Part shown: positions 5,236-54,847 of the stretch, in pieces
Numbering within the stretch: the stretch's first letter is position 1
How the letters are laid out: each line of letters begins with the position of its first letter
Assembly: GCA_041662625.1 (NCBI GenBank)
Contig: JBAZSB010000001.1
Span: 855,710-919,709 of the forward strand
Length of the DNA: 64,000 bases
From: Patescibacteria group bacterium
GTDB lineage: Bacteria > Patescibacteriota > Patescibacteriia > Buchananbacterales > UBA6539
Direction of reading: 5' to 3'
Translations under genes and position numbers: made by a program
Notes under the pieces: generated by a model
The model's input: only the letters and a program-made list of their open reading frames with translations
What the model was told of the DNA's origin: nothing
The model's database searches: none

Positions 5236-6889
5236 TGACTTGATAAATTTGGACTTGGCCAGACTCAAAAACTAATCTTAAGTAATTTTTAGTGGCTGGA
5301 TCAAAACTACCCAGCTTTTTTTCATAATCACTATAAAAAATATAGTCAATCCCTTGCTTGTTTAAAAATTCTTTTTTGGCAGAATCTTGAGTATTATCTT
5401 TCAAAAACCAAATTAAATAAGGCAACTTGGAATCATAAAACAAGGTTTCGTGCAAATGAGCTAGATATACTGGCTGGCCAGAAAAACCGGGAATAAATTT
5501 TGCCGGCATTTCACTGGCCAAAACCACTTGGCCCAAAGGCTGATTTTTCAGCCAAGCCATGGCCGAAAGTACATCTTGGCTAAAATAAAATTTTTCTTTT
5601 ACTTCCTTTGGCTGAGCCGTAAAAAAATATAAATCGCGATAGAGGTTAAATAATGTTGATGGGCTAAGCAAAACAATAAACAAAACGCCCAGTAAAAATG
5701 GGTTTTCCACTAAAAAATTAGAGTAACTAGGTTTAAGTTTTGTTTTCAAGTAATCATATAAATAAAATAAGCCGGCAACGGTAAAAATCACCAAAACTAC
5801 ATGCAAGCCTTGAGTATAACGGCTATGAAAAGGCAGGGGTGAATAAATCAAAGCCAAATCTACCAAAAGCCAAACTAAGAGAAAAATGAAAGAATTGGTA
5901 AATTTTTTATTCCGCCCAAGAAAAACTAAGCCCAAAATCAACCCTAACCAAAGCCAGCCATAGCCCACGAAAACAAAAATTGGCGGCGATATAAAAGTTA
6001 CATTTTGGGCGGCCCGCTGGGCAATTACGGCACTGTTTTGAATCAACCAAAAATGATAAAAAATTGAAGGGGCAGAAAGTAAAAAAACTAAAATTAAATA
6101 CATCGCTTCAGTCCATAAAAATCTTTTGGCTTCTAGCATCAAAATAAAAAGGTACAGCCCCCCCACCCCAAAAATAACCGGGACATAATAAGGATGAAAA
6201 TTAAAATAAAATAAAGCTAAAACTCCACTAACCAAAGCATAACTAAGCTTTCTCTTTTCAAAAGCCAAAAGCATCAATAAAAAAATTAAAAGCATCAAAG
6301 TGATTGAAGCGATAAAATGAGAGGTTTGATATAAAGTGTTAAAGGTATTGGCCTCAGGTATCCATAAATCAATCGGCCAGCGATAAATTGAGGTATCAGC
6401 TAGGCCGAGCTTAAAAACCGGACCGGCAAAATAAAAACCAATGCCTGAGGCAAAAAATAAAAAAATTAAACAGATTTTCCGCTTCAGGACTTCAGGAAAA
6501 ATATAGCTAATAAAAAGATAGGCCACAAAAATAAAAATGGGAATCATTAAAATCCGAGAAAGCTGAAAACCCAATATGAGCGGCACGTGAAAAAATCTTA
6601 CCCCTAAGCCAACCAATGTCCACCAAACATTAAAAGTGCCCAAAGTCTGGGGCTCACTGGTAAATAAATCTTTAACCAAAAACTCACCTGAAGTAACTTG
6701 ATTAATATAAGAATAGTAAACCGGAATATCGCCCGGGCTTAAGGCGTGTAAACCATTATAAGCTGTTTGGCTCGGCGCATTTAAATAACCAACTAAATAA
6801 GGCAGGCCGGTTAAAATAATAATAACCACCGTTAGGATGGCGACAAACTGCCATTCTTTTTTGGAAATTGATTTAATTAGTTCCTTCAT
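5225..6889 (-). CDS. GT-C-fold-like polytopic membrane protein (putative polyprenyl-phosphate-sugar-dependent glycosyltransferase)
   Basis: 554 aa with more than 10 TM segments and a soluble C-terminal domain. Paralogous to 6910-8586: the C-terminal ends are shared (YIFYSDYEKKLGSF..YLRLVFESGQVQIYQV versus FVFYTKYEKSLGNF..YLKLVYKNPEVEIYQAW). Confidence 0.4.
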   Translation of the reverse strand: MKELIKSISKKEWQFVAILTVVIIILTGLPYLVGYLNAPSQTAYNGLHALSPGDIPVYYSYINQVTSGEFLVKDLFTSEPQTLGTFNVWWTLVGLGVRFFHVPLILGFQLSRILMIPIFIFVAYLFISYIFPEVLKRKICLIFLFFASGIGFYFAGPVFKLGLADTSIYRWPIDLWIPEANTFNTLYQTSHFIASITLMLLIFLLMLLAFEKRKLSYALVSGVLALFYFNFHPYYVPVIFGVGGLYLFILMLEAKRFLWTEAMYLILVFLLSAPSIFYHFWLIQNSAVIAQRAAQNVTFISPPIFVFVGYGWLWLGLILGLVFLGRNKKFTNSFIFLLVWLLVDLALIYSPLPFHSRYTQGLHVVLVIFTVAGLFYLYDYLKTKLKPSYSNFLVENPFLLGVLFIVLLSPSTLFNLYRDLYFFTAQPKEVKEKFYFSQDVLSAMAWLKNQPLGQVVLASEMPAKFIPGFSGQPVYLAHLHETLFYDSKLPYLIWFLKDNTQDSAKKEFLNKQGIDYIFYSDYEKKLGSFDPATKNYLRLVFESGQVQIYQVIKD

Positions 6890-37663: not shown

Positions 37664-38818
37664 TTATTGTTTGATCGGCATGATGATATAAAGATAATCA
37701 CTACCTTTACCTGCTGGTTTTAGAACACAAGGACTGCTGCTATCAATCACACTAACTTCCACTTGTTCAGTACTAATATTTTGTAGCCCATCTAAAAGAT
37801 AACGATAATTAATAACGATGCTGTTATTGTCACCAGACAGTTCCCCACCCAGCCGAGAAATATTTTCTCCCAGTTGATTATTGGCTGAAGAAATAGTGAC
37901 TTCTTTTTTTTCTGGATTAACTTCTAAACTAACATCATAAATTCCGCTGCGGGTAAAAAGACTGGTGGTTTTGGTGGCGGCAATAAATTCCGAAACACTT
38001 AAAGTCGCTTTGGTGTTAGATTGCTGGGGAATAATTTGTTGGTAATCGGGATACTGGCCTTCCACCAAGCGAGAAATTAATTCGATATTTCCTAAAATAA
38101 ATAAAATTTGATTTTCCGCCAGATAAATTTCCACTTCTTCAATTTCGGAAATTGCCGCCGGGTCTTTAAAACTCCCTAAAATCCGCTGGAGTTCCTGCAA
38201 GGTCCGGGTGGGGACAATTACTCTTTGGGGAATACTGCTTGATTTTTTGGCTAAACTGACTGATTTTTCCGCTAACCGATAACTATCGGTAGCCGCTAAA
38301 ACTAAAGAATTACCCACAAAATTAAACAAGACCCCGTTAATTTCCGGCCGGGTTTCACTGATTGAAACGGCAAAAATTACCTGGTTAATTGCCTGGCGTA
38401 ATTTTTGGCTGGATAAAACATAGGGATTTTTTTTGTTGATCTGGGGAATTAAAGGAAAATCAGTGGCGGGCTGACCTTTAATTTTAGTTGAATTATTCTT
38501 GCAGCGAAGACTCAAACTTTGGTCCTGTCCTTCTTTGATTTCTTTTGCCACCACCAAATCAACTCGTTCTTTGGGCAGGAGCCCAACATAATCAGCTAAA
38601 AGTCGGGAGTGGATGGTAAAATCACCTTCTTCTTCCACCTTCCCCCGAATAATACAACTAACGCCAATTTCTAAATTTGTTGCCGAAAGTTTAATAGTAT
38701 TTTCTTGGGCTTGAATTAAAACGTTGTTTAAAATTGGCAAGGCCGTATTTTTTGAAGCGATATGGCTGACAACAAACAAGCCTTGATTTAAGTTTTCTTG
38801 GGTGCAGGATATTTTCAT
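37664..38818 (-). CDS. dnaN: DNA polymerase III beta sliding clamp
   Basis: MKISCTQENLNQGL ... ALPILNNVLI; 384 aa; adjacent to dnaA. Confidence 0.85.
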   Translation of the reverse strand: MKISCTQENLNQGLFVVSHIASKNTALPILNNVLIQAQENTIKLSATNLEIGVSCIIRGKVEEEGDFTIHSRLLADYVGLLPKERVDLVVAKEIKEGQDQSLSLRCKNNSTKIKGQPATDFPLIPQINKKNPYVLSSQKLRQAINQVIFAVSISETRPEINGVLFNFVGNSLVLAATDSYRLAEKSVSLAKKSSSIPQRVIVPTRTLQELQRILGSFKDPAAISEIEEVEIYLAENQILFILGNIELISRLVEGQYPDYQQIIPQQSNTKATLSVSEFIAATKTTSLFTRSGIYDVSLEVNPEKKEVTISSANNQLGENISRLGGELSGDNNSIVINYRYLLDGLQNISTEQVEVSVIDSSSPCVLKPAGKGSDYLYIIMPIKQ

Positions 38819-39099
38819 AACTTTTAGTTTATATATTTATTAATAATATTAATAAGGGGGGTGGATAAGTGGGAAAGATTAAAATTTATTTTAATTTAGT
38901 AATTTTATTAAGGTCAAATTTTTCAAAAGTTGGGGAAAGACTTGTGAATAAGGTTGTGGTAACTTCCACCCTTATTTTCAGTTGATTTTTTTCCACCACT
39001 ACCCTTAAGTTTGTCCGGTGGGTTTTCCTAAAAGTTACCCCCACTAGCCTAAAAATTATCAACAGCTTTCAGATCCTAAAATAGCTTTTATACCCTTGA
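38819..39099. promoter_or_regulatory. Candidate oriC / DnaA-box cluster (dnaA-dnaN intergenic)
   Basis: AT-rich with DnaA-box-like 9-mers at 1 mismatch or fewer: GGTGGATAA, TGTGAATAA, TTATCAACA. Confidence 0.5.
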
Positions 39100-40464
39100 T
39101 TAGATATAAAGTTTTTCTCTAATCAGTTTGATATCCTGATTAATTTTTTCATCCTCGTCGATTGCTGTAGTGATCTTAAAGTGGGCATGCATGGCAGTGG
39201 TGTGATCGCGGTTACCAATTTCTTGGCCAATGGCTGGATAAGAGCTTCTTAATTCCTCGCGCATCAAATACATCACAATCTGTCGGGGTAAAGCCAGATT
39301 TTTTTTGCGGCAGGCACCCAACAAATCTTCTAGTTTGATATCATAAAATTCCGCCACTAAATTGATAATTTGTTTAGGGGTGACTGATTTTCTGCGTTGG
39401 CCTGAGCTAATGGAAGTTAAAACCTTTTTTATGTTGTCTAAAACCGGTTCAGTTCCATTCAACTGATGGTAAGCAATGATTCTATTCAAAGCCCCTTCCA
39501 ATTCTCTAATGTTATTTTGAATATTAGCGGCGATATAGGTAATAATTTCATCATTAAGCTGATAATTTTTCTCTTTACATTTAGTCTTTAAAATTGCGGC
39601 CCGGGTTTCCAGGTCAGGAGCCGAGATATCAGCAATCATTCCCCATTCAAAGCGAGAGACCAAGCGGCTTTCCAGGGCCGGGATGGCCTTCGGTGGCCGA
39701 TCGGAAGTGATTACCACTTGTTTATTGGCTTGGTGTAAGTCATTGAAAGTATAGAAAAAGGCTTCCTGGGTTCCTTCTTTACCAGCCAAGAACTGGATAT
39801 CGTCCACTAATAAAACATCAACCGAGCGATAAATATTTTTAAAATGATCAGCTCGGTTACTGGAAATTGATTTAATAAAATCATTGGTAAATTTTTCGCA
39901 AGAAACGTAAAGGACTTTCTTTTGGGGGTTGGTCTGAAGAATTTGATTGCCGATTGCTTGGATTAAATGAGTTTTACCTAAACCAACGCCGCCGTAGATA
40001 AATAAAGGATTATAGACCTGCCCTGGTTTTTGGGCCACCGCCATACTGGCCGCTTGAGCTAATTCATTACCTTTACCAATGACGAAATTATTGAAAGTAT
40101 AACGGGGGTTAAGGCCGAATTCATTAAGGGCTGGTGCTTCTGTCCCTACCGTAAGCATTACTTTAGCGGTTTTTTCCTGGATTTTTTTCTCAGTTTGTTC
40201 CTCTTCAGCTTTAAATTTCGTTTCCACTTGGTAAATAATGATTTTTATTCGATTATTGGTAATTTTTTGTAAAGCCCGAAGAATAGCAGAGTGGTACTTC
40301 TTTTCTAGCCAAGCCTTGGTAAAGGTATTAGGTACGCCAATAGTAATAGTTTCTTCTTGATAAGAAGAAATAAAGGTATTTTTGAACCAAGTAGTAAAAT
40401 TTGCTCGGCTAAGAGTCAATTCCAGTTCACCCAGAGTCGCTTGCCAAATTTTTTGCTCCTCCAT
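39100..40464 (-). CDS. dnaA: Chromosomal replication initiator DnaA
   Basis: GGVGLGKTHL (Walker A), DDIQFLAGKE, and the C-terminal DnaA signature QEIGNRDHTTAMHA. Confidence 0.95.
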   Translation of the reverse strand: MEEQKIWQATLGELELTLSRANFTTWFKNTFISSYQEETITIGVPNTFTKAWLEKKYHSAILRALQKITNNRIKIIIYQVETKFKAEEEQTEKKIQEKTAKVMLTVGTEAPALNEFGLNPRYTFNNFVIGKGNELAQAASMAVAQKPGQVYNPLFIYGGVGLGKTHLIQAIGNQILQTNPQKKVLYVSCEKFTNDFIKSISSNRADHFKNIYRSVDVLLVDDIQFLAGKEGTQEAFFYTFNDLHQANKQVVITSDRPPKAIPALESRLVSRFEWGMIADISAPDLETRAAILKTKCKEKNYQLNDEIITYIAANIQNNIRELEGALNRIIAYHQLNGTEPVLDNIKKVLTSISSGQRRKSVTPKQIINLVAEFYDIKLEDLLGACRKKNLALPRQIVMYLMREELRSSYPAIGQEIGNRDHTTAMHAHFKITTAIDEDEKINQDIKLIREKLYI

Positions 40465-40788
40465 TTTTTTGGTTTTTTAATTTCTTAAATTATAATCAAA
40501 GTTTTTACTTGGGGTTTTTGGTGACCATCACATTATAGCATAAACTATTTATCCCCAACACTAGCTTTGTCTAATGATAATGTTAATAAGCTGTTGATGG
40601 AATGTGTATAATAATTTAACCCTTTTAAAGATTTTGGTCAATCCCCTACCCCTAGATTATTTTTGATTTATTTCAGCTATTCCCTTTGACGTTTAAAGGA
40701 AATTCTGATATTATAAATGGGTCAATCCCAAAATAATTCAGTAAAATGGGAAATATAATAATTAAAAAAGGGTAATTTTTAACGAGAT
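40465..40788. promoter_or_regulatory. dnaA upstream region / second oriC candidate (rpmH-dnaA intergenic)
   Basis: AT-rich; TTATCCCCA (1 mismatch to the DnaA box); direct repeats GGTCAATCCC twice; gene-strand polarity switches here. Confidence 0.45.
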
Positions 40789-43525: not shown

Positions 43526-43978
43526 CTATTTTACTTTTTCAACAATCGAATCACTCTCCGACTTAGTATTTAGCGCTAGTTTATTTTTTTGTTTTTCTAT
43601 CTTTTCAAAATCTTCAATTTTTTCTAGTTTGGCTTTTCTCTCTTCACCGACGCTACATTTACCCTGGAGGCAGGCACCGGCGGCCATCGTTAAAATTTGA
43701 GTTTTGACATCGCCGAAAATTTTAGCGGTGTTGGTCAATTCCAGATTTTCTTTAATTTTAATATTACCTTGGACTTCGCCGGCAATCAAAGCATTAGCGG
43801 CTGAGATTTGGGCAAAGACTTTTGCTCCGCCGCCAACGCGAAGATTTTTTTCCGTTCTGATACTGCCCGAGACCGTCCCTTCGATAACAATATCACCATT
43901 GGCAACAAAATTTCCTTCGACTTGGACAGAAGGACCAATTACAGTTTCAATTTCGTCGCCACCTTCTTTTTTAAACAT
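43526..43978 (-). CDS. Bactofilin
   Basis: Beta-helical repeats V.G....V.G.I....L.V.G.AKV.A.I.A....I.GEV.G.I. Confidence 0.65.
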   Translation of the reverse strand: MFKKEGGDEIETVIGPSVQVEGNFVANGDIVIEGTVSGSIRTEKNLRVGGGAKVFAQISAANALIAGEVQGNIKIKENLELTNTAKIFGDVKTQILTMAAGACLQGKCSVGEERKAKLEKIEDFEKIEKQKNKLALNTKSESDSIVEKVK

Positions 43979-44268
43979 AGGATTAAAGTTATTTATTAGG
44001 TATTACCTCTTTATTTTAGGGGGTTTTAGGGAGAGTGTCAATCTGGTAAAAATCGCAAATTACAAATCTCAAATTCCAAACAAATTCAAAATCTCAAATT
44101 CAAAATTCAAAACGTTAATTCCAAGAAGTTTGTAATTTTAGATTTTGAATATTGTAATTTGTTTGATATTTGTAATTTGGAATTTGGTGCTTATACTTTA
44201 ATTCCCTCTTGCCTTTTTAAATCACTCATGCTATCCTTATTTTTGTTACTTAATTAATTCAAATTACT

Positions 44269-44538
44269 ATGCCCATAAAAAAATCAGCTTTTAAAGCACT
44301 GCGACAAGGTAAAAAACGAGCCGAGCAGAATAAGAAAGTTAAAAGTGACCTGGTTGCTTTGATTAGAAAAGTGAGGAAATCTGTAGAAAAAAAAGATGAA
44401 GCTAAAGCGGTTGAATGGCTGAAGCAGGCAATCAAAAAAATTGATAAAGCCGCTCAAAAAGGAATAGTTAAAAAAAATACCGCGGCCCGGAAAAAGTCGC
44501 GACTAGCTAAAGCCGTGGGAATGCTGAAGAAAAAATAA
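44269..44538 (+). CDS. rpsT: 30S ribosomal protein S20
   Basis: MPIKKSAFKALRQGKKRAEQNKK ... KNTAARKKSRLAK. Confidence 0.85.
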   Translation: MPIKKSAFKALRQGKKRAEQNKKVKSDLVALIRKVRKSVEKKDEAKAVEWLKQAIKKIDKAAQKGIVKKNTAARKKSRLAKAVGMLKKK

Positions 44539-44548
44539 AACGATAAAA

Positions 44549-44590
44549 ACATCGAGGTGCTCTGCTAGGACACCTCTATGTTTTTATCAC
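44549..44590. terminator. Bidirectional terminator between rpsT and holA
   Basis: AAAAACATCGAGGTG-ctctgctagga-CACCTCTATGTTTTT. Confidence 0.6.
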
Positions 44591-45562
44591 CAGCAAGTCA
44601 AATAAGACCTCAGGATCAATTTGGCTTGTTTTTATTTTATAGTCAATTGTAATCAGATTTTGGTAGATTTTTTTTAAAGTGGGTAATTGATGAAAGTGGG
44701 CCTGAGCCATGGTTTTTTTAATCACAAACGGATGAAGACCCAAGGTATAGGTTAGGCGGGAAGAAGAATAGCCGCTGCCATGGCTTTCCATAAAGCTTTT
44801 GACTAGCAGCAGATTTTTGAATTGCCAGGTGATTTTGGTTAAAAGTTCAGTTGGGCTGGTGCCACCCCGCAGCTGATCGGAGATTAATTTTAACGCCAAT
44901 TTTTTGTTTTTTTGGCCCAAAGCATCGGTGAGTTTAAAAATATCAGCCTCTAATTTATTTTTAACCAGTTCATTAACGTCCGCTACTGTAATCAGTTGAT
45001 TGGGGCGAAAAGCCAAAAGCTTATCAATTTCTGAATTCAGCTGCCATAAGTCATTGCCGGTTAGATCAGCCAAAAGATTTAAGGCAGAGGGTTCAATTTT
45101 ACCGCCCCGCTTTTTAATTTGTTCACTGGCAAAGCGGCAGACTTCTTGTTCAGTCAAAAGATCAAATTCCTGGGCATATTTTTCTTTTTTCAGCCGGCTG
45201 AAAAGCAGGTTGCTGCGTTTTTGGGAAATTTTGGAGCGTGATTTGCCCCCGTCCAGCCCGCTTTCCCAAAAAACAATAATTGTATCTTTTAAACCATTTT
45301 TGTCCAAAGCCTCAAGAATTTCTTTTTGAATTTTTTGGCCTTTGTTTTTGGAAATTAAGTCTTCAATAATTACCAGTCGTTTTTTGGCCAAAAAAGGAGG
45401 GGTCGAAACAGCCTTTTCAAACTCTGGCGTTTCTAGAGTATCCCCTTTTAAAATCTCAATATTCAAACTCGACTTATCAAGTTCTTTGACAAATTTTTCT
45501 TTAATCTCCTTAAGTTTTTGCCTAGAGCGGAAAGTGTCTGGGCCCCAAAGGAAGAAAATCAT
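44576..45562 (-). CDS. holA: DNA polymerase III delta subunit
   Basis: 328 aa, MIFFLWGPDTF..; the size and N-terminal pattern fit HolA. Confidence 0.55.
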   Translation of the reverse strand: MIFFLWGPDTFRSRQKLKEIKEKFVKELDKSSLNIEILKGDTLETPEFEKAVSTPPFLAKKRLVIIEDLISKNKGQKIQKEILEALDKNGLKDTIIVFWESGLDGGKSRSKISQKRSNLLFSRLKKEKYAQEFDLLTEQEVCRFASEQIKKRGGKIEPSALNLLADLTGNDLWQLNSEIDKLLAFRPNQLITVADVNELVKNKLEADIFKLTDALGQKNKKLALKLISDQLRGGTSPTELLTKITWQFKNLLLVKSFMESHGSGYSSSRLTYTLGLHPFVIKKTMAQAHFHQLPTLKKIYQNLITIDYKIKTSQIDPEVLFDLLVIKT

Positions 45563-45702
45563 GTAGAGTAGTTGGTAAGTTTATAAGTTGGTAAGTTGAA
45601 AAGTTGGCGTAGTTATTTTAACAAAGATTAAGTTTTTTAGAAAGGAAAGAGCGCCTCGGCTGGGGAAGTCGAGGCGCTCGGTTTCGATGTTGATGTCAGA
45701 GG

Positions 45703-47274
45703 TTACCGTCTGGCTTTGTGGGCAGAGGCAATCTCTTCCATACGGGCTCGCAGGGAGCCAGCATCCCGGGCCGGAGCGGCCTGGGAGCGTTCATTGTGGT
45801 GGGAGCGGCCGTTGCCGCCTTTGTGGTCCTGCCGTTGGGGGCGAGTCCGGGGGCGGTCGTCGTGATGCTGGTCGCGGCGTTGGCTGATTTTCACCTGGCG
45901 GCGAACAGCGCAGCAGCGGGGCAGACCCAGCCAGTACATCGGGCAGGTACCACCCGACTGGTCTGGCAGGCGGCACATCCTGCCAGTGGCGCACTGCTCT
46001 TGGCCCCGATGCCACTTGGTCTCATCCAAGGCCAAGGTGATTGCCGCCACGATCTCCTGGGTCGTCAGCAGGGTGGGCTCCACCTCTGGGTGGCTCAGGG
46101 AGCCATTCAGGAGGTTGATGCCGATTGTGATAACGATTGGACCCTTGCCGCGGCGGACCGTGATTTCCTTCTTGGGGTAATGCCAGGCCGGGGCGTCATC
46201 GATCGTGCCTTCGGCAGAGAGGTCTTGCCAGTCTTGGAAGGTGGCCTGCGTCATCTTGCCGGTCCTGATGCGGGCTGCAATCTCGTAGTAGCGGATGGCC
46301 CGGACTACGCTATCGAAGTCGATGTGGCGGTTCCGGCGGTAGAAGATCTGGGTCTGACCGCCTTGCCACCGCATTACCACGATATCGGCCTCGTCGCCAT
46401 ATTTGCTCATGGCCGCACTCGGCATCTGGGCTGCCAACTGCGCCAAAGGCGAGAGCTGATCGCCACGAGGCATGGGTTCGGGCAGCTCGATCACGACGAG
46501 CCGGTACATCAGTCGAACCCACTGGTCTTCACCCTTGGTACGCTTCTTGACCATTGGGCCGGGGATCTCGGCGACTTTGCTGGCCAACTCGCGGTACTTG
46601 CTGACCACTTGGGTCATGAAAGACTCTCGTTGACCGAGATGGGTTGTCAGTAGGAACCGGCCGATTCTGATCGCGGCCAGGGATCCGAACTGACGACCCG
46701 TGCCTTTGCCCATGGCACTCGGTCCAAGCGGATTGCGGTCGCCATTCCGGTCTTCCCACTGGATGTACCCCAGCATGCGGGTGAATACCGGGTCATCCTT
46801 GATACCAAGGATTCCCGCCATCAGACTGGTGGCGCACTCGTGGCGAAATCCGCTCTGGTGTTCGTCCACCGGTCCCTTGGCGATTCCGATCGGCAAAGTG
46901 CCTTCGTGGAGGTGGGCTTCGATGGGCCGACTGTCCGGGGTTTCTTGCGCCGTACCCCAGAATTGAATCAGGTCTGGATCCTTCCTGCCTTTTGTCTTCC
47001 CGCCATCATCAAGGGCCATTTTGATCAGCTTTTCGATGCCCGGGAATACCACCTCTCCCCGATGCTCAAGGAGCACAAGGGCTCCAACTTCGTCAAGGTG
47101 AGGAAAGTGGTGGGTGGCAAGCCGTTTTACCAGCTTACCTTTCCCGCTCGGGTGGGGGGGGAGGAGATCAAGCAAAGCTTGCATCCTTTTCACCTGCTCC
47201 TGATAAGCCGGTGGCTTGCCCCTCTCACTTGTTGCTGCCGGTGTTACTTTCGGTGCTGTGGTGCTTGCTACCAT
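45703..47274 (-). CDS. Hypothetical 523-aa protein on a high-GC (about 60%) foreign island
   Basis: SD AAAGGAGCGGAACC upstream of the ATG; a 10-bp GC hairpin terminator at 45649-45679; strong GC contrast with the flanks; basic disordered C-terminus. Confidence 0.5.
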   Translation of the reverse strand: MVASTTAPKVTPAATSERGKPPAYQEQVKRMQALLDLLPPHPSGKGKLVKRLATHHFPHLDEVGALVLLEHRGEVVFPGIEKLIKMALDDGGKTKGRKDPDLIQFWGTAQETPDSRPIEAHLHEGTLPIGIAKGPVDEHQSGFRHECATSLMAGILGIKDDPVFTRMLGYIQWEDRNGDRNPLGPSAMGKGTGRQFGSLAAIRIGRFLLTTHLGQRESFMTQVVSKYRELASKVAEIPGPMVKKRTKGEDQWVRLMYRLVVIELPEPMPRGDQLSPLAQLAAQMPSAAMSKYGDEADIVVMRWQGGQTQIFYRRNRHIDFDSVVRAIRYYEIAARIRTGKMTQATFQDWQDLSAEGTIDDAPAWHYPKKEITVRRGKGPIVITIGINLLNGSLSHPEVEPTLLTTQEIVAAITLALDETKWHRGQEQCATGRMCRLPDQSGGTCPMYWLGLPRCCAVRRQVKISQRRDQHHDDRPRTRPQRQDHKGGNGRSHHNERSQAAPARDAGSLRARMEEIASAHKARR

Positions 47275-47522
47275 GGTTCCGCTCCTTTGCCAGGCCTATC
47301 CTGGCCGGATCTTCTCTGAGACCCGTAATGTAGATTGAACGCAAAAAATGAGCTTACAGCCGCTCCAACATGATGGGTTGGTTCGGACTGGTCAAATAGA
47401 CTTTAAAGGATAGCATAATTGGGCTATTTTGTCAAGAAAAACCAAAAAATAGCCTAAATGGGCTATTCTTAAGTGGGTGGTTAATTGGTTAAGCTGGCAA
47501 AACTTGTTTTGTCCTAGGTATT

Positions 47523-50273
47523 TTAGATTTTTTTCAGTTCTCCCCAGTTCTCCCCGACTTCTACCTCCACGGCAATTGGTGCCCGCAGTTCATAGATTTT
47601 TTCCATAGTCTTTTGGACAAACTCAGCGACTTTTTTCAGATCATTTTGGGGCACTTCAAAAACCAGTTCATCATGAACTTGTAAAATCATTTTGGTTTTG
47701 GGAGAAATGGTTTCTAACTCTTGATGAATTTTAATCATGGCAAGTTTCATCAGATCAGCAGCCGTACCTTGAATAGGATGGTTAATAGCCATGCGTTCGG
47801 CCGAAGAAGCAATCGGCTGAATGTTGGAATTAATTTCTGGTAAATAGCGGCGGCGGCCAAAGAAAGTTTCTACATAACCTTTTTTTCTGGCTAATTCTTT
47901 GGTCTGTTCGAGGTAATTATAAATGTCGCGATGAATGGTAAAATAGCGATCAATGAAATCACGGGCTTGGCCATAAGTTATGCCGGTACCGGCAGCCAAA
48001 CCATGCGGTCCTTGGCCATAGATAATGCCAAAGTTTACCGCTTTTGCGGCATAGCGCATTTGTTTTGTGACTTTTTCTAAAGGTACCTGGTTGATTTCCG
48101 CTGCTGTTCGGGAATGGATATCCTCATTTTTTTTGAAGCTTTCAATCATTCTTTTGTCGTTGGCAAGCGAAGCAATAATCCGCAGTTCAATTTGGGAGTA
48201 ATCAGCTGCCAGAATTTTAAAGCCGCGTGGGGCCACAAAAGCTTTACGGATTTGCTGGCCCAGTTCGGTTCGGATCGGAATATTTTGTAAATTAGGTTCA
48301 GAAGAAGAAAGTCGGCCGGTGGCAGTTATCGTTTGGTTAAAGCTGGTGTGAATCCGGCCGGACAGATCAACCAGTTTAGGCAAAGCATCAAGGTAAGTTG
48401 ATTTCAGTTTAGCCAGTTCGCGGTATTTAATGATTAAATCAATAATTTTATGCTGGCCCCTTAATTTTTCCAGTTCATCGGCAGCGGTAGAAATTCCGGT
48501 TTTGGTGTGGCCAAGGCCTTGGGTGGAAATTTTTAATTTATTAAAAAGGATTTCTTTGAGTTGCAAGGGGGAGGCAATATTAAATTTGGTGCTGGCCAGC
48601 TGGTAAATCTTTTTTTCGAGTTCAACTAAATCCTGATCAACGTGGCGACTCATTTTTTTCAAAAAAGTGGTATCAACCAAAATGCCGTCTTTTTCCATTT
48701 GGGCTAAAACCGGAATTAAGGGCACTTCAATTTTTTGCAAAAGACCCAAATTGTTTTTTTCTTCGAGTTGCTTGGTTAAAGGTTTAACCAGGCGCCAGGT
48801 GAAATCAGCGTCTTCGCCAGAGTACCAAGCGACTTTTTCCAGCGGGACTTCTTTGAGAGTAATTTGATCCTTACCTTTTTTGCCGATTAGGTCGGTGATG
48901 GGCTGCATTTGGTAACCTAGTTCAGTGAAAACCAGCCCGTCTAAATTATGCTGCCGGCTGCCGGGGTTAATTAAGTAAGAGGCAATCATGGTGTCAAAAA
49001 CAACGCCTTTTAATTCCAGGCCAGCCGTCTGCAGGGTTTCCAGATCAAATTTAATATTATGCCCGACTTTTTTAATTTGGGGATCAGCTAAAATTGGTTT
49101 AATAATTTCTAGCCAGGCTCGTTGAGCCGGTAAATAGTAGGCAATCCCCGCTTGCCAGCAAAAACTGATGCCTAAAAGTTCGGCGTTAAACTGGTCCAGG
49201 CCGGAAGTTTCCGTATCCAAAGCGAAGATTTTTTGTTTTTTTAGTTCGCTAACAAATTTTTTGAAATCAGCTTCAGCTTTGATTAATTGGTAGTTGGCAT
49301 TTGCAGGCCTGGCGCCGCCATCGCGTTTTCCCGCTCGGTCTTGGTCACTAAATTCAAACCGGCCTTGGCCCGGGATGGTGCCTTTTTGCAAATCCTTTGG
49401 TAATTTGTTAATTAGAGACTTAAATTCTAATTCCTGAAAAAGCGGAATGACTTTACCCACGTCATAGGGGCGGACTTTGGCGTCTTCCAGCTTAAATTTG
49501 ATTGGCACGTCAAAAATCAGCTGGCTGAGCTTTTTTGACATCAAAGCTTCTTTTTTTTGCTCTGAAAGCAAAGCGCGGTAGCGGTCCGGGATTTTTTTTG
49601 CTTCTAAATTTTTATATAAATTATCCAAAGTTTTAAATTCTTTAAGCAGGGTAATTGCCCCTTTTTCACCAATTCCTTTAACCCCGGGAATGTTATCTGA
49701 GGGGTCGCCGCGCAAAGCTTTGTAATCAACCATTTGCTCTGGCGTCAAACCTTCAAACCGGCGTTTAACTTCGGCGATATCGTAAGTCAGGGTGTCGGAG
49801 ATTCCTTTATGCATGGTATAAACTTCAGTGTTTTGGTCAACCAGTTGTAAAGTGTCCAAGTCACCGGTGACAATAATAGTCAGTAAGTCTTGGACTGATT
49901 TATCTTTAACCAAAGTGGCAATCACATCATCAGCTTCAAAACCTTCTTTTTCGTAAATTGGCAGGTTAAAAGCTTTGACCACTTCTTTGACTTTAGGAAT
50001 TTGAGCGTAGAGTTCGTCGGGTTGTTTTATCCGGGTCGCTTTGTATTCTTTGTATTCTTTATGGCGAAATGTCGGGGCTTTCAAATCAAAAGTCACGGCT
50101 AAATAATCCGGCTTTAAATCTTTTAGGACTTTAAGCAGAATCATGGTAAAGCCGTAGACCGCATTAACAATTTCGCCGGACTTAGTCTGCAAAGTCGGTG
50201 GCAAAGCGTGCCAGGCGCGGTGGAGCAAAGCATTGCCATCAATGATGATAAATTTATCCTTTTTTGAGCTCAT
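47523..50273 (-). CDS. polA: DNA polymerase I (5'-3' exonuclease, 3'-5' exonuclease, polymerase)
   Basis: 916 aa; FIIIDGNALLHRAWHA, motif A DYSQIELR, motif C HDE. Confidence 0.9.
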   Translation of the reverse strand: MSSKKDKFIIIDGNALLHRAWHALPPTLQTKSGEIVNAVYGFTMILLKVLKDLKPDYLAVTFDLKAPTFRHKEYKEYKATRIKQPDELYAQIPKVKEVVKAFNLPIYEKEGFEADDVIATLVKDKSVQDLLTIIVTGDLDTLQLVDQNTEVYTMHKGISDTLTYDIAEVKRRFEGLTPEQMVDYKALRGDPSDNIPGVKGIGEKGAITLLKEFKTLDNLYKNLEAKKIPDRYRALLSEQKKEALMSKKLSQLIFDVPIKFKLEDAKVRPYDVGKVIPLFQELEFKSLINKLPKDLQKGTIPGQGRFEFSDQDRAGKRDGGARPANANYQLIKAEADFKKFVSELKKQKIFALDTETSGLDQFNAELLGISFCWQAGIAYYLPAQRAWLEIIKPILADPQIKKVGHNIKFDLETLQTAGLELKGVVFDTMIASYLINPGSRQHNLDGLVFTELGYQMQPITDLIGKKGKDQITLKEVPLEKVAWYSGEDADFTWRLVKPLTKQLEEKNNLGLLQKIEVPLIPVLAQMEKDGILVDTTFLKKMSRHVDQDLVELEKKIYQLASTKFNIASPLQLKEILFNKLKISTQGLGHTKTGISTAADELEKLRGQHKIIDLIIKYRELAKLKSTYLDALPKLVDLSGRIHTSFNQTITATGRLSSSEPNLQNIPIRTELGQQIRKAFVAPRGFKILAADYSQIELRIIASLANDKRMIESFKKNEDIHSRTAAEINQVPLEKVTKQMRYAAKAVNFGIIYGQGPHGLAAGTGITYGQARDFIDRYFTIHRDIYNYLEQTKELARKKGYVETFFGRRRYLPEINSNIQPIASSAERMAINHPIQGTAADLMKLAMIKIHQELETISPKTKMILQVHDELVFEVPQNDLKKVAEFVQKTMEKIYELRAPIAVEVEVGENWGELKKI

Positions 50274-50355
50274 AGTAAATTAAGCGAGTTCAGTAAATTA
50301 AGCGAGTTAAGTCCACTTAATTTACTGAACTCGCTGAACTCGCTTAATTTACTTA
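50274..50355. repeat. Composite palindromic repeat immediately upstream of the polA start
   Basis: Units A=AGTAAATTAA and B=GCGAGTTC are arranged A-B-A-B / gtccac / A'-B'-B'-A'. Confidence 0.6.
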
Positions 50356-50463
50356 TTATATTATACCATTTTCCTTTTAATAAATCCTTGGCTAAATAAA
50401 AACCCCTGGTGGGCTTGCGCACGCACCAGGAGGTGAATACAGTTCGAGTTCAGCGGACTTGGT

Positions 50464-50811
50464 TCAGCCCACTTGTCTAATCCTCCGCAGCAAAGCTTGG
50501 GGGTGATAGGGCTTCCAGACGATAGCCTGCACTCCGGCTTGCTGACAACGATCGGCCAGCGATCTATCCACCCCTTTATCTAGGGTGACAATCACTGGAT
50601 AGTTCGGCCAGGCTGCCTTGACTAGTTCCAGGTTACCAATACCTTGGTCATCCGGAACGTGTAGGACTATGACCGTTGGTCCGTCAGTCGTCAGGTTAAC
50701 ATCACTGACTTTCTGGTTCAGCGAAACCGGAAAACCCGCCGCCTGAAGGGTATTGGCCACGCCACCCAGACTAAGGCTTTCGCCAATGAACACTACTTTT
50801 GGTTTTTCCAT
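50464..50811 (-). CDS. Stand-alone degenerate receiver (REC-like) domain protein, high GC
   Basis: Matches the REC pattern around VIVLHVPDDQGIG and KPY, but the N-terminal acidic pair is replaced (FIGES). A terminator hairpin on the minus strand at 50405-50440. Confidence 0.4.
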   Translation of the reverse strand: MEKPKVVFIGESLSLGGVANTLQAAGFPVSLNQKVSDVNLTTDGPTVIVLHVPDDQGIGNLELVKAAWPNYPVIVTLDKGVDRSLADRCQQAGVQAIVWKPYHPQALLRRIRQVG

Positions 50812-50832
50812 CGCTGTTTCCTCCGCGATGAT

Positions 50833-51801
50833 TTAGTTCGGGATCAGCCCCAGTTCGTCCAGCACCCGCTTCAGAATCGCAGTGTTGGCCGGTTGCATCG
50901 GGACCAGCGGTAGTCTGAAACAGGCTTTCTCGATCACTTTCCTCTGGGCAAGAGCCTCTTTCACGCCCAACGGGTTGGTCTCGATGAAAAGACCTCCTTT
51001 ACCGAAGAGTGTTTCCAGTCGGTGGTGGATGGCAAAGCCAGCCGCTCGGTCATCACATATTTGGCCGTTAGCCGCAGCGAAGTGGTCAACCATAACCTTG
51101 ACTTGGTCAGTGATGCAGGATGCGACTGAAATCACACCGTTGCAGTCGCCAGTCGCCATGACTTGAGCCGTGATGCCGTCATCACCAGACCAGATGACAA
51201 AGTCCGCTGGGCATTGTTTCCGTAAGGCAGCGAAGCGAGCCGGGTCACCTTCAGCTTCTTTGTGGCCGATGTAATGGGGGAATTCCCGAGCCAGTTCGAC
51301 AATCACCTCGACTGGAATGGGTCCGCCGCCGGTCCGTGCCGAAACCGAGTAGCTGATGAAGGGGATACCGAGTTTGGCGATGGCTCGGAAATGCGCCAGC
51401 ACACCCTCCGGCGTGGGGTTGTTGTAGTACGGCTTTACGATCAAAACCGCATTGGCGCCAGCTTCGGCCGCTCTCCTGGTTAGCCAGATCGCCTCCTTGG
51501 TGCTGTTGGCACCAGTGCCAGCGATAACCGGAACGCGACCGTCGACCGTACCGATGGTCCAGGAAATGTAGGCGAGTTGTTCTTCATGACTCATGGTCGC
51601 CGGCTCGCCCGTGGTGCCGGCCGCCAGGATGGCGTCGTTGCGGCATGGGTCGATGAGATGGTCAATCAGTTTGGCCTGCTGCGCAAAATCGATTGGCGCA
51701 TCATCTGGTCCCAAGCCATTACTGGCATAGACCGTGGGCATTGCTGGGATACAGCGCAAAGCCCTGGCTGTCTTTCTGGTCAGTAGCTCATGTGGTTTCA
51801 T
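50833..51801 (-). CDS. DapA/NAL-family class I aldolase (dihydrodipicolinate-synthase-like), high GC
   Basis: AAGTTGE, YYN, IGHKEAEG (Schiff-base Lys region); GC about 58%. Confidence 0.6.
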   Translation of the reverse strand: MKPHELLTRKTARALRCIPAMPTVYASNGLGPDDAPIDFAQQAKLIDHLIDPCRNDAILAAGTTGEPATMSHEEQLAYISWTIGTVDGRVPVIAGTGANSTKEAIWLTRRAAEAGANAVLIVKPYYNNPTPEGVLAHFRAIAKLGIPFISYSVSARTGGGPIPVEVIVELAREFPHYIGHKEAEGDPARFAALRKQCPADFVIWSGDDGITAQVMATGDCNGVISVASCITDQVKVMVDHFAAANGQICDDRAAGFAIHHRLETLFGKGGLFIETNPLGVKEALAQRKVIEKACFRLPLVPMQPANTAILKRVLDELGLIPN

Positions 51802-54517: not shown

Positions 54518-54847
54518 CTATATTGGCTGGAGTTCGAAGACGAGAACACCGAGTCGACTAACATCACCCTTAAGTACTTCCCTCAGAGCAGCCAGAAGGG
54601 CATCCTGCTCCGTATCAGGATTAGGATAGATGCGTCGATAGTCCTCTGTTTTGAGGGCATCTTCTAGTGTGGGATACTCCCGGATGCCCGTGACTTTTCT
54701 TCCGTGTCTATTGTTAAAGATTATGGTATCTCCAACTTTAACCTCCCTGAAGATACGGTGTCCAAGTCGGATCTCCAAATCTTTGCTGCCGTCCTCGATG
54801 AACGGCAGCACAAGACGCATCACGAACCAACTGTGCGTTGCCGACAT
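54518..54847 (-). CDS. ASCH (PUA-like) domain protein, elevated GC
   Basis: 109 aa; SD AAGGAGG lies 8 nt upstream of the ATG. Confidence 0.4.
   Translation of the reverse strand: MSATHSWFVMRLVLPFIEDGSKDLEIRLGHRIFREVKVGDTIIFNNRHGRKVTGIREYPTLEDALKTEDYRRIYPNPDTEQDALLAALREVLKGDVSRLGVLVFELQPI

Follow-up and report, generated by a model that had tools for sequence, protein, structure and literature searches.

An imported gene that evolves under the mutational regime of its host should, through amelioration, lose any excess of guanine and cytosine (GC) at third codon positions (GC3), and the universal mutation bias of bacteria runs toward AT. Hyper-variable cassettes between conserved flanks are found at capsule and O-antigen loci, which are usually AT-richer than their genomes, and the vls antigenic-variation locus of the AT-rich Borrelia is GC-rich. 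In bacteria, recombining genes are raised in GC, above all at GC3 (Lassalle et al. 2015, PMC4450053), and among enzymes MYG1 is a DHH-motif 3'-5' RNA exonuclease (PMC6582341). Here we describe gene X, a GC-rich gene between polA and holA in a 64,000-nt stretch of DNA from a Patescibacteria group bacterium (contig JBAZSB010000001.1, positions 855,710 to 919,709; this whole 64-kb stretch is hereafter the window, and its coordinates are used throughout). Our data show that the GC patch is a genuine, self-contained monocistronic gene occupying a fixed polA-holA slot a few kb from dnaA and dnaN in a Patescibacteria clade, and that neither misassembly nor recent insertion accounts for it.

Gene X and the open reading frame (ORF) lying opposite it are placed as follows:

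45703..47274, minus strand: gene X, 523 aa (ORF list, GC at the first, second and third codon positions, conserved columns, AlphaFold2 (AF2) model, strain differences)

45718..46653, plus strand: antisense ORF of 311 aa, a by-product and not a gene (synonymous shuffles, non-conservation)

In 200-nt windows, GC was 0.37–0.41 at 45400-45700, 0.54–0.69 through 45600-47400 and then 0.39–0.42, with values of 0.25–0.45 on both sides of this island and mostly 0.33–0.45 in the remainder of the window. Over 45640-47340, GC was 56–69%, compared with 35–42% in the flanks. An earlier reading made from the DNA letters alone (the sequence-only reading) had described a sharp high-GC island at 45640-47340 with a 523-aa ORF in it, and both stand: the island coincides with the single ORF of X, which was the most GC-extreme among the 56 non-overlapping window ORFs of at least 100 aa that served as the reference set, both in GC (0.608 versus 0.394 ± 0.051, z = 4.2) and in GC3 (0.714 versus 0.383 ± 0.068, z = 4.8). 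GC was highest at third positions, lower at first positions (GC1) and lowest at second positions (GC2) (0.71/0.65/0.46), the pattern seen when a coding gene is subject to GC pressure. The codon-usage comparison that the sequence-only reading had proposed showed the preference of X to be opposite to that of the host at every two-fold codon (TTC 0.82 vs 0.18, ATC 0.90 vs 0.26, AAG 0.57 vs 0.17, and TTA 0 vs 0.32), and its amino-acid composition is typical of a genome of 60–65% GC. Rare-codon throttling was considered as a reason for this composition and found weak, as the fraction of host-rare codons (0.16 in X versus 0.09 ± 0.04 elsewhere, maximum 0.255) is not distinctive. The NCBI annotation (WC675_04520) begins the protein at Met31 (493 aa; the region concerned is 47185-47274, minus strand), but the 523-aa start is favoured by a conserved Shine-Dalgarno (SD) sequence, which precedes the ATG at 47274 by 7 nt, and by the orthologs, whose N-termini can be aligned.

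Structured RNAs typically stand out by their high GC when the genome is AT-rich, and long antisense ORFs do exist here (311 aa in the window, 486 aa at the orthologous locus L001), so that the region could be imagined as mainly a structured RNA of large size, or as a sense and an antisense gene that both code, rather than chiefly a protein-coding gene. We find this hardly credible. Shuffles of synonymous codons gave antisense open runs that were equal or longer (the fraction at or above the observed run was 0.41–1.0 across four orthologs), and the runs of the four orthologs (316, 477, 169 and 261 codons) were conserved in neither length nor extent. The antisense ORF is therefore a by-product of GC3-rich codon usage, much as the sequence-only reading had supposed for high-GC DNA, and these shuffle controls rule out dual coding or an antisense gene. 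The order of GC across codon positions, the catalytic-type residues that stay invariant across the roughly 1,000 clusters of the protein family, a confident AF2 model, the absence of any Rfam match and the purely synonymous differences between strains described below also speak against a non-coding or dual-coding region.

Comparison with a separately assembled JGI contig (L012) addressed whether X could be an assembly chimera or a contaminant contig fragment, a possibility that the sequence-only reading had raised and that has the compositional jump itself, and nothing else, in its favour. This strain-level contig is collinear with window positions 43760-50895 over 7,137 bp at 99.55% identity and spans both junctions, the same architecture is assembled in at least six other contigs (NCBI, ENA, JGI and Logan), and the source contig is 922 kb long; the chimera reading is refuted for practical purposes. 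The homology check that the sequence-only reading had suggested returned, as the nearest and only near-identical database entry, a hypothetical protein of a Patescibacteria metagenome-assembled genome (MAG) on a 922-kb contig. Inside X, L012 and the window differ at four sites, all four synonymous and none non-synonymous (p ~0.004 under neutrality by our own estimate, with about three-quarters of random changes being non-synonymous), indicating purifying selection on a real protein.

Orthologs of X occupy the same slot, in the order polA-X-holA-rpsT-bactofilin-DAGK, at loci L001/L002 (P0002), L003/L004 (P0003) and L005 (P0004), and in L005 the shared run extends beyond DAGK to yidC, rnpA, dnaA and dnaN. 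Across the four lineages, X has a GC of 0.57–0.62 and a GC3 of 0.68–0.82, whereas its neighbours have 0.39–0.44 and 0.40–0.50, respectively. The "insertion" flanked by repeats of the sequence-only reading is thus not supported, given that three further lineages carry an identical slot, each with its own GC jump. A recent horizontal insertion, in this genome alone, of a gene of high-GC origin between polA and holA would account for the abrupt GC change confined to one transcription unit, for the inverted codon usage and for amino-acid make-up like that of a 60–65% GC genome, and other GC-raised genes nearby do vary between close genomes. However, four lineages, saturated or nearly so at silent sites, all have a GC-rich ortholog in the same slot, and conservation extends to the AT-rich promoter and leader. 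No integrase, tRNA, att-like duplication, target-site repeats or mobility genes were found at the X locus, where the unit is one gene, and the 64-kb window contains no tRNA genes at all. Protein searches found no donor-like homolog closer than ~30% identity outside the clade, and relatives of X were absent from phage, plasmid and IMG/VR viral-contig collections. Only four long-form X alleles were found, all in polA-X-holA synteny. Measured against the usual marks of a genomic island, X has the atypical composition and lacks an empty site in relatives, mobility hallmarks and an identifiable donor. Recent insertion is thus very unlikely and has largely been refuted by the conserved synteny: orthologs in the same slot that are GC-rich and fast-evolving, together with a strain contig reading across both junctions, point to neither a recent foreign insertion nor an assembly error. 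X may have originated long ago by transfer into the ancestor of the clade, which leaves unexplained a GC excess that persists past synonymous saturation. In the window, dnaA lies at 39.1–40.5 kb and dnaN at 37.7–38.8 kb (span 37664-40467), about 5–8 kb from X, which places this hyper-variable gene near the probable replication origin.

We compared four-fold degenerate sites of identical residues between distant lineages, taking as the expected value the matches between unrelated sequences of the same composition. X matched at 0.38–0.46 of sites versus 0.33–0.40 expected, and neighbouring genes gave, for example, 0.24 versus 0.25 (holA, window and L001) and 0.30 versus 0.30 (DAGK, window and L003). 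For X and most neighbouring genes, matches were therefore at or near the expectation for unrelated sequences, which means that silent sites have turned over at least once. Since all four X genes nevertheless stand at GC3 0.68–0.82, the GC excess is maintained and is not the fading scar of an import; the high GC of X is a stable, gene-specific equilibrium. A weaker excess recurs across the wider family in other lineages. Family genes were GC-richer than their neighbours at L026 (GC3 0.56 vs ~0.30), L029 (0.61 vs ~0.41) and L027 (0.74 vs ~0.56), and also at L006, L009 and L011; they were at host GC in the GC-rich L023, L008 and L014, and members at L007, L010 and L016 had no GC enrichment.

These patterns might reflect selection at the RNA level that keeps the X transcript GC-rich and U-poor, whether by resisting AU-preferring RNases (perhaps the X product itself), by stabilizing folding or by tuning expression. 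Consistent with such selection, the coding strand of X contains only 14–17% T (8–14% at third positions), NNC is favoured over NNT even where one tRNA reads both, GC enrichment recurs in the family among hosts of differing GC, and the leader of X is structured and conserved. The X mRNAs were also locally more structured than their synonymous shuffles (z −2.8 to −7.2), but 11 control genes gave overlapping scores (+0.6 to −4.3) and structured windows did not recur at a common position among orthologs, so that selection on mRNA structure is a weak tendency only. Furthermore, GC1, GC2 and amino-acid composition are shifted as well, beyond what selection confined to silent sites would call for, three family members (those at L007, L010 and L016) show no enrichment, and the excess divergence of X is left unexplained. 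On balance, RNA-level selection seems an improbable cause of the composition.

The divergence of X stands apart from that of its surroundings. Between the window and L005, which come from close relatives, amino-acid identity was 88.6% for polA, 88.4% for holA, 91% for rpsT, 90% for DAGK and 93% for dnaA/dnaN/SMC, versus 40% for X. At the DNA level, identity was ~82% in polA and 83–91% in the leader, fell to ~40% within ~50 nt of the X start codon, averaged 48% over X and 50–64% over the terminator spacer, and returned to 85–91% at the start of holA. X thus behaves as a hyper-divergent cassette in a conserved frame, with divergence running from its start codon to the holA leader. Normalised four-fold-site retention between the same two loci was 0.15 ± 0.07 in X versus 0.33–0.51 in six core genes, indicating that silent divergence is raised too, beyond what selection on the protein alone can produce. 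Divergence is also decoupled from host distance, since the X proteins of L001 and L003 are 52% identical though their holA proteins are only 62% identical. Window X was nearer to L001/L003 in its N-terminal domain and nearer to L005 in its C-terminal half. These domain-specific affinities in window-wise identities hint at mosaic or recombinant alleles, but shared indels argue for common descent, and the four alleles are compatible with either allele exchange or uneven in-situ acceleration. Searches of the 64-kb window with tblastn and blastn for silent cassettes or a template repeat found X alone.

Other GC-raised genes, variable between close genomes, lie further along the window:

50464-51801: GC-raised variable segment with orf115 and a DHDPS-family gene

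54518-54847: GC-raised variable segment

56077-57384: GC-raised variable segment

The DHDPS-family gene (50833-51801; GC3 0.64) is 70% identical between the window and L005 and orf115 (50464-50811, minus strand; GC3 0.53) is 53% identical, with normal silent divergence in both. A 2-hydroxyacid dehydrogenase with an ACT domain (GC3 0.55) and orf109 (GC3 0.52) are present only in the window in the region compared, and a GC-raised UbiA gene is present in L005 and missing from the window. Because the GC-raised genes are also the variable ones, GC-richness appears to mark the flexible genes of this lineage; X is the extreme among them, and it alone shows an excess of silent change. Between the window and L012, similarity breaks off abruptly at 50690-50895: after only 10 differences over the preceding 6.9 kb, eight fall in the stretch encoding the N-terminus of orf115 and another 15 in the 84 bp that follow. 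A second GC-raised segment that varies between strains has its edge here.

What X encodes was approached through its relatives. As the sequence-only reading had concluded, no known family or motif could be recognised: searches of Pfam (E ≤ 10), NCBIfam, PHROGs, PADLOC and PDB sequences gave no family match, Pfam searches with three segments of X and with ten close relatives were likewise empty, and a PDB profile search with a 101-sequence alignment returned only chance matches to EGFR. An indexed homology search yielded two to three matches per query, and it was an exhaustive hidden Markov model search that revealed the family: among 1.84 billion representatives, we found 1,042 relatives, 564 of them at E ≤ 1e-10. 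The family comprises about 1,000 clusters at 50% identity, mostly of ~350 aa, with cluster names that all read "hypothetical protein". Its members are solitary genes in varied housekeeping contexts in Saccharibacteria, Parcubacteria and a few other MAGs, and no conserved operon partner was seen in the neighbourhoods examined. At L027, a class-A RNase P RNA (RF00010, 175 bits; 5409-5858) stands directly upstream of a 398-aa family member on the same strand, which hints at an association with RNA processing or is coincidence.

Across the 101 aligned members, H55, H59, D61, E62, D137, E138, H139, C147, D175 and N390-G391-S392 are nearly invariant (H55, H59, D61, E62 and D175 are kept in at least 90%), and a Cys cluster (C428/C434/C444/C454, C-x5-C-x9-C-x9-C) is conserved in the family consensus. 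X itself begins with a disordered T/A/P/K-rich N-terminus (residues 1–20), followed by a domain bearing the catalytic-type motifs and a second domain with LLNGS at 388–392; a beta-hairpin insertion (231–263) and a basic, disordered tail with GGNGR (474–504) are specific to its clade. The AF2 model, built from the 101 sequences, has two globular domains (mean predicted local distance difference test (pLDDT) score 87.7, predicted template modelling (pTM) score 0.82). In it, the disordered basic tail foreseen by the sequence-only reading appears at 485–504, and a predicted terminal helix follows at 505–522. Whole-chain Foldseek searches of the PDB gave top matches that were all of the DHH family (DhhP 9r7o, RecJ2 7ykv/6tvv; best E 3.3e-3), and the Pfam DHH model weakly matched two of the 101 members (E = 0.005). 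In an hhalign comparison of the family profile with a human MYG1 sequence, residues 50–221 of X aligned with MYG1 45–236 (145 columns, E 1.3e-4, probability 53%); all three metal motifs fell in register, with THHFPHLDE on THNGTFHCDE. As a positive control, this MYG1 sequence scored 458.7 bits (E 1.8e-137) against PF03690.

In part, then, these data show X to be the long form of a large unnamed family whose invariant residues align with the metal motifs of MYG1/DHH phosphoesterases (H-x3-H-x-D-E, D-E-H and an Asp). Judging from these aligned motifs and the modelled fold, X is probably a two-metal phosphoesterase of MYG1/DHH-like type whose substrates would be the 3' ends of RNA or nucleotides, with a predicted activity of the exoribonuclease, nanoRNase or nucleotide phosphodiesterase type. 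The Glu of the D-E-H motif could still bind metal, and the Cys cluster and basic tail may hold the nucleic-acid substrate.

The signals around X were compared over four orthologous loci (window, L001, L003 and L005). They are, in the direction of transcription:

47445..47470, minus strand: intrinsic terminator of polA, hairpin AAGAATAGCC..GGCTATTTTT followed by a T-run (terminator scan, inverted repeat, four-locus conservation)

47407..47435, minus strand: sigma-70-type promoter of X (TTGACA, 17-nt spacer, TATCCT, extended -10 TG)

47275..47404, minus strand: 130-nt 5' leader of X (RNAalifold, four-leader conservation)

45639..45679, minus strand: intrinsic terminator of X (GC hairpin with 13-nt arms, then a T-rich tract)

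45570..45610, minus strand: tandem repeats in the holA 5' leader, 8-nt period AACTTnnC (direct-repeat family D1)

The polA terminator (47470->47445) has 10 pairs and a T-run, with compensatory changes in all four loci. Just downstream, the X promoter (10/12 matches) is the only promoter-like site in 45500-47600; over the four loci it takes the form TTGACA-17 nt-TAnnnT with an extended -10 TG, and TTGACA and TATGCTA are invariant in all four. The leader is 124–130 nt long and starts with an invariant block, AAAGTCTATTTGACCAGT, a motif unique in the window. It is 83–91% identical between the window and L005, versus ~48% for the coding sequence. A stem-loop at ~47390-47357 covaries. A GCUC segment is predicted to pair with the GAGC of the SD, forming a helix that would occlude it, and a conserved hairpin (GCCAGG/CCUGGC) is predicted directly before the SD. 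The SD itself, which the sequence-only reading had attributed to X, is AAAGGAG at 47288-47282, 7 nt upstream of the ATG and invariant in all four loci. RNAalifold on the four leaders gave 32 pairs, nine of them with compensatory double changes, centred on the 5' stem-loop and different in each lineage (CCAAC/GUUGG, UUCCAAC/GUUGGAA, GCUAAC/GUUAGC and ACGCAG/CUGCGU). Rfam 15 had no match at the gathering score over the whole window and none at E ≤ 1 in 45550-47560. Considered as sequence, this conserved, covarying leader may be a new cis-regulatory RNA, one that could control X translation by occluding the SD, possibly as autoregulation. Solitary family genes at L023, L026, L027 and L029 have non-coding spacers of 250–650 nt upstream, and long leaders may be a feature of the family beyond the clade of the window.

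Downstream, the arms of the X terminator (45649-45661 and 45667-45679, 13 nt, 92% complementary) precede TTTCCTTTCT on the minus strand, confirming the GC hairpin terminator described earlier, and a GC hairpin with a T-tract ends X in all four loci, with sequences that differ among L001, L003, L005 and the window. The repeats that the sequence-only reading had taken to flank an element exist, but neither marks an element end. Its inverted repeat at 47405-47450 (found at 47406-47470) is the polA terminator, partly overlapping the X promoter, and its direct repeats at 45571-45610 (found at 45570-45601), the AGTTGGTA repeats, form an 8-nt-period tandem array directly upstream of the holA start codon; the flanking repeats are thus ordinary signals. 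That array has about five units in the window and about seven in L005 (11775-11845), is absent from L001 and L003, and sits at the edge of the hyper-divergent zone as part of holA and not of X. It is a copy-number-variable repeat in the leader of an essential gene.

We consider the best overall explanation to be that X is a resident, regulated, phosphoesterase-like gene whose GC is maintained and whose locus has extra recombinational or mutational input, and we give this whole a probability of roughly 0.5. Its least certain step is that the polA-holA locus would receive such input, by allele replacement or by gene conversion via the conserved flanks; X might then be held GC-rich by repair biased toward GC or by a pool of GC-richer alleles. 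Among viable causes, we rank first recombination with GC-biased repair, together with import from an unsampled GC-richer allele pool; second, a GC-favouring mutational process limited to the ORF; and third, selection for a U-poor transcript, perhaps tied to an RNase product. Recombination with GC-biased repair is viable in that it is consistent with the link between recombination and GC3 and with the excess silent divergence, though the excess in X is far above known effects.

Several points weigh against this explanation. Published effects of recombination on GC3 are modest, small gene-class averages far below the +25–35 points at issue here. We found no direct evidence of recombination at X, and no GC-rich donor pool for X in 15 billion proteins, phages, plasmids and viral contigs. 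The GC3 effects in recombining bacterial genes have been described only as differences between gene classes (PMC4450053). With regard to the protein, the Foldseek matches to DHH enzymes were weak (probability ≤ 0.69, TM ~0.15–0.25), the N-terminal domain modelled alone (pLDDT 93) had no PDB match (best E = 1), the Pfam MYG1 and DHH models did not match X, and X reads D137-E138-H139 (DEH), nearly invariant in the family, where the canonical DHH triad stands. The leader model was built on four sequences only. Finally, four-point distances favour ((window,L005),(L001,L003)), matching the host tree, and all five lineage-specific indels in X are common to the window and L005 only; these shared indels are accounted for by unevenly accelerated in-situ descent at least as well as by allele replacement.

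Those last two observations also support another account, in which an ancient transfer into the clade ancestor was followed by purely in-situ evolution, with strong positive or relaxed selection plus mutation that is locally raised and favours GC, for instance in association with transcription or repair, and no allele exchange. In keeping with it, divergence is strongly domain- and lineage-specific, the GC-raised DHDPS and orf115 genes evolve fast as proteins with normal silent divergence, and the zone of divergence matches the extent of the transcribed ORF plus terminator. However, silent divergence in X is two- to three-fold above that of its neighbours, which protein selection alone cannot produce, and the X proteins of L001 and L003 are more alike (52%) than those of the window and L005 (40%) although their hosts are far more distant. 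The account would also need mutation to run against the AT-ward bias of bacteria, and we know of no GC-biased mutator limited to an ORF. We regard purely in-situ evolution as rather unlikely.

A bolder extension, which we offer as a long shot, is that the slot hosts an ORF-delimited, GC-favouring diversification, either targeted gene conversion or hypermutation from start codon to terminator or a composition-based "self-immunity" of a ribonuclease through its own U-poor mRNA. If true, a nuclease-like gene would have been kept hyper-variable for long evolutionary times, at a GC 20 points higher than that of its genome, with the same principle acting more weakly across a family of ~1,000 clusters; this process and the covarying leader would jointly amount to a means, not described before, of maintaining and regulating a fast-evolving gene in minimal genomes.

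Whichever cause applies, the combination of persistent GC excess and cassette-like divergence in X is unusual, and its family of phosphoesterase-like proteins was previously undescribed. A GC3 of 0.68–0.82 in genomes of ~0.40–0.45, despite silent sites that are saturated or nearly so between lineages, is a natural experiment on base-composition evolution, and it is not predicted by simple amelioration theory; GC-biased conversion, RNA-level selection and recurrent import become testable at one locus. A large family common in Patescibacteria and without a Pfam or NCBIfam model is now defined (~1,000 clusters), providing a candidate RNA or nucleotide phosphoesterase in organisms with poorly known RNA-turnover machinery. 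For genome curation, filters that identify islands or contamination by composition would wrongly drop this resident gene from MAGs of the candidate phyla radiation (CPR).

Among known enzymes, X most resembles MYG1/UPF0160 (PF03690) in its core size (~320–350 aa), in an N-terminal T-H-x-x-x-(F/P)-H-x-D-E motif that leads into a hydrophobic helix, and in G-G-x-(Y/F)-D-x-H at the catalytic DHH position with a conserved Asp downstream. It differs in lying below the PF03690 gathering threshold, in reading DEH instead of DHH, and in having an extra Cys4 cluster and a clade-specific basic tail and beta-hairpin insertion. The DHH/DHHA1 phosphodiesterases (NrnA, DhhP/Pde2, GdpP and RecJ) are its best, though weak, structural neighbours and appear to share a two-domain layout, acidic/His metal motifs in domain 1 and a G-S loop (LLNGS) in domain 2; however, the DxD, DHH and GGGH motifs are not in canonical form in X and matches are at E 3e-3 or worse. 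The ChrB domain belongs to a chromate-responsive regulator (PMC3817168), and its C-terminal part (PF09828) weakly matches the N-terminal ~120 residues of 19 of the 101 family members (E ≤ 1, best 6.2e-7), in the same region as the DHH matches and over an H..H.DE..A.WLL motif. X itself has no such match, the three matches inspected individually fell short of the Pfam cutoff, two members scoring 13.7 and 15.2 bits versus 25, and no chr genes lie near X. With regard to its evolution, X differs from the allelic cassettes of capsule, O-antigen and vls loci in being a single cytoplasmic enzyme gene and not a surface-structure locus, without silent donors in the 64-kb window, and it shares with them conserved flanks, identity cliffs, deep divergence of alleles and odd composition. 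The comparison with GC-biased gene conversion is similarly divided: X alone stands +25 to +37 GC3 points above its neighbours, yet its excess is, like that of recombining genes, largest at GC3, and it coincides with the most divergent locus.

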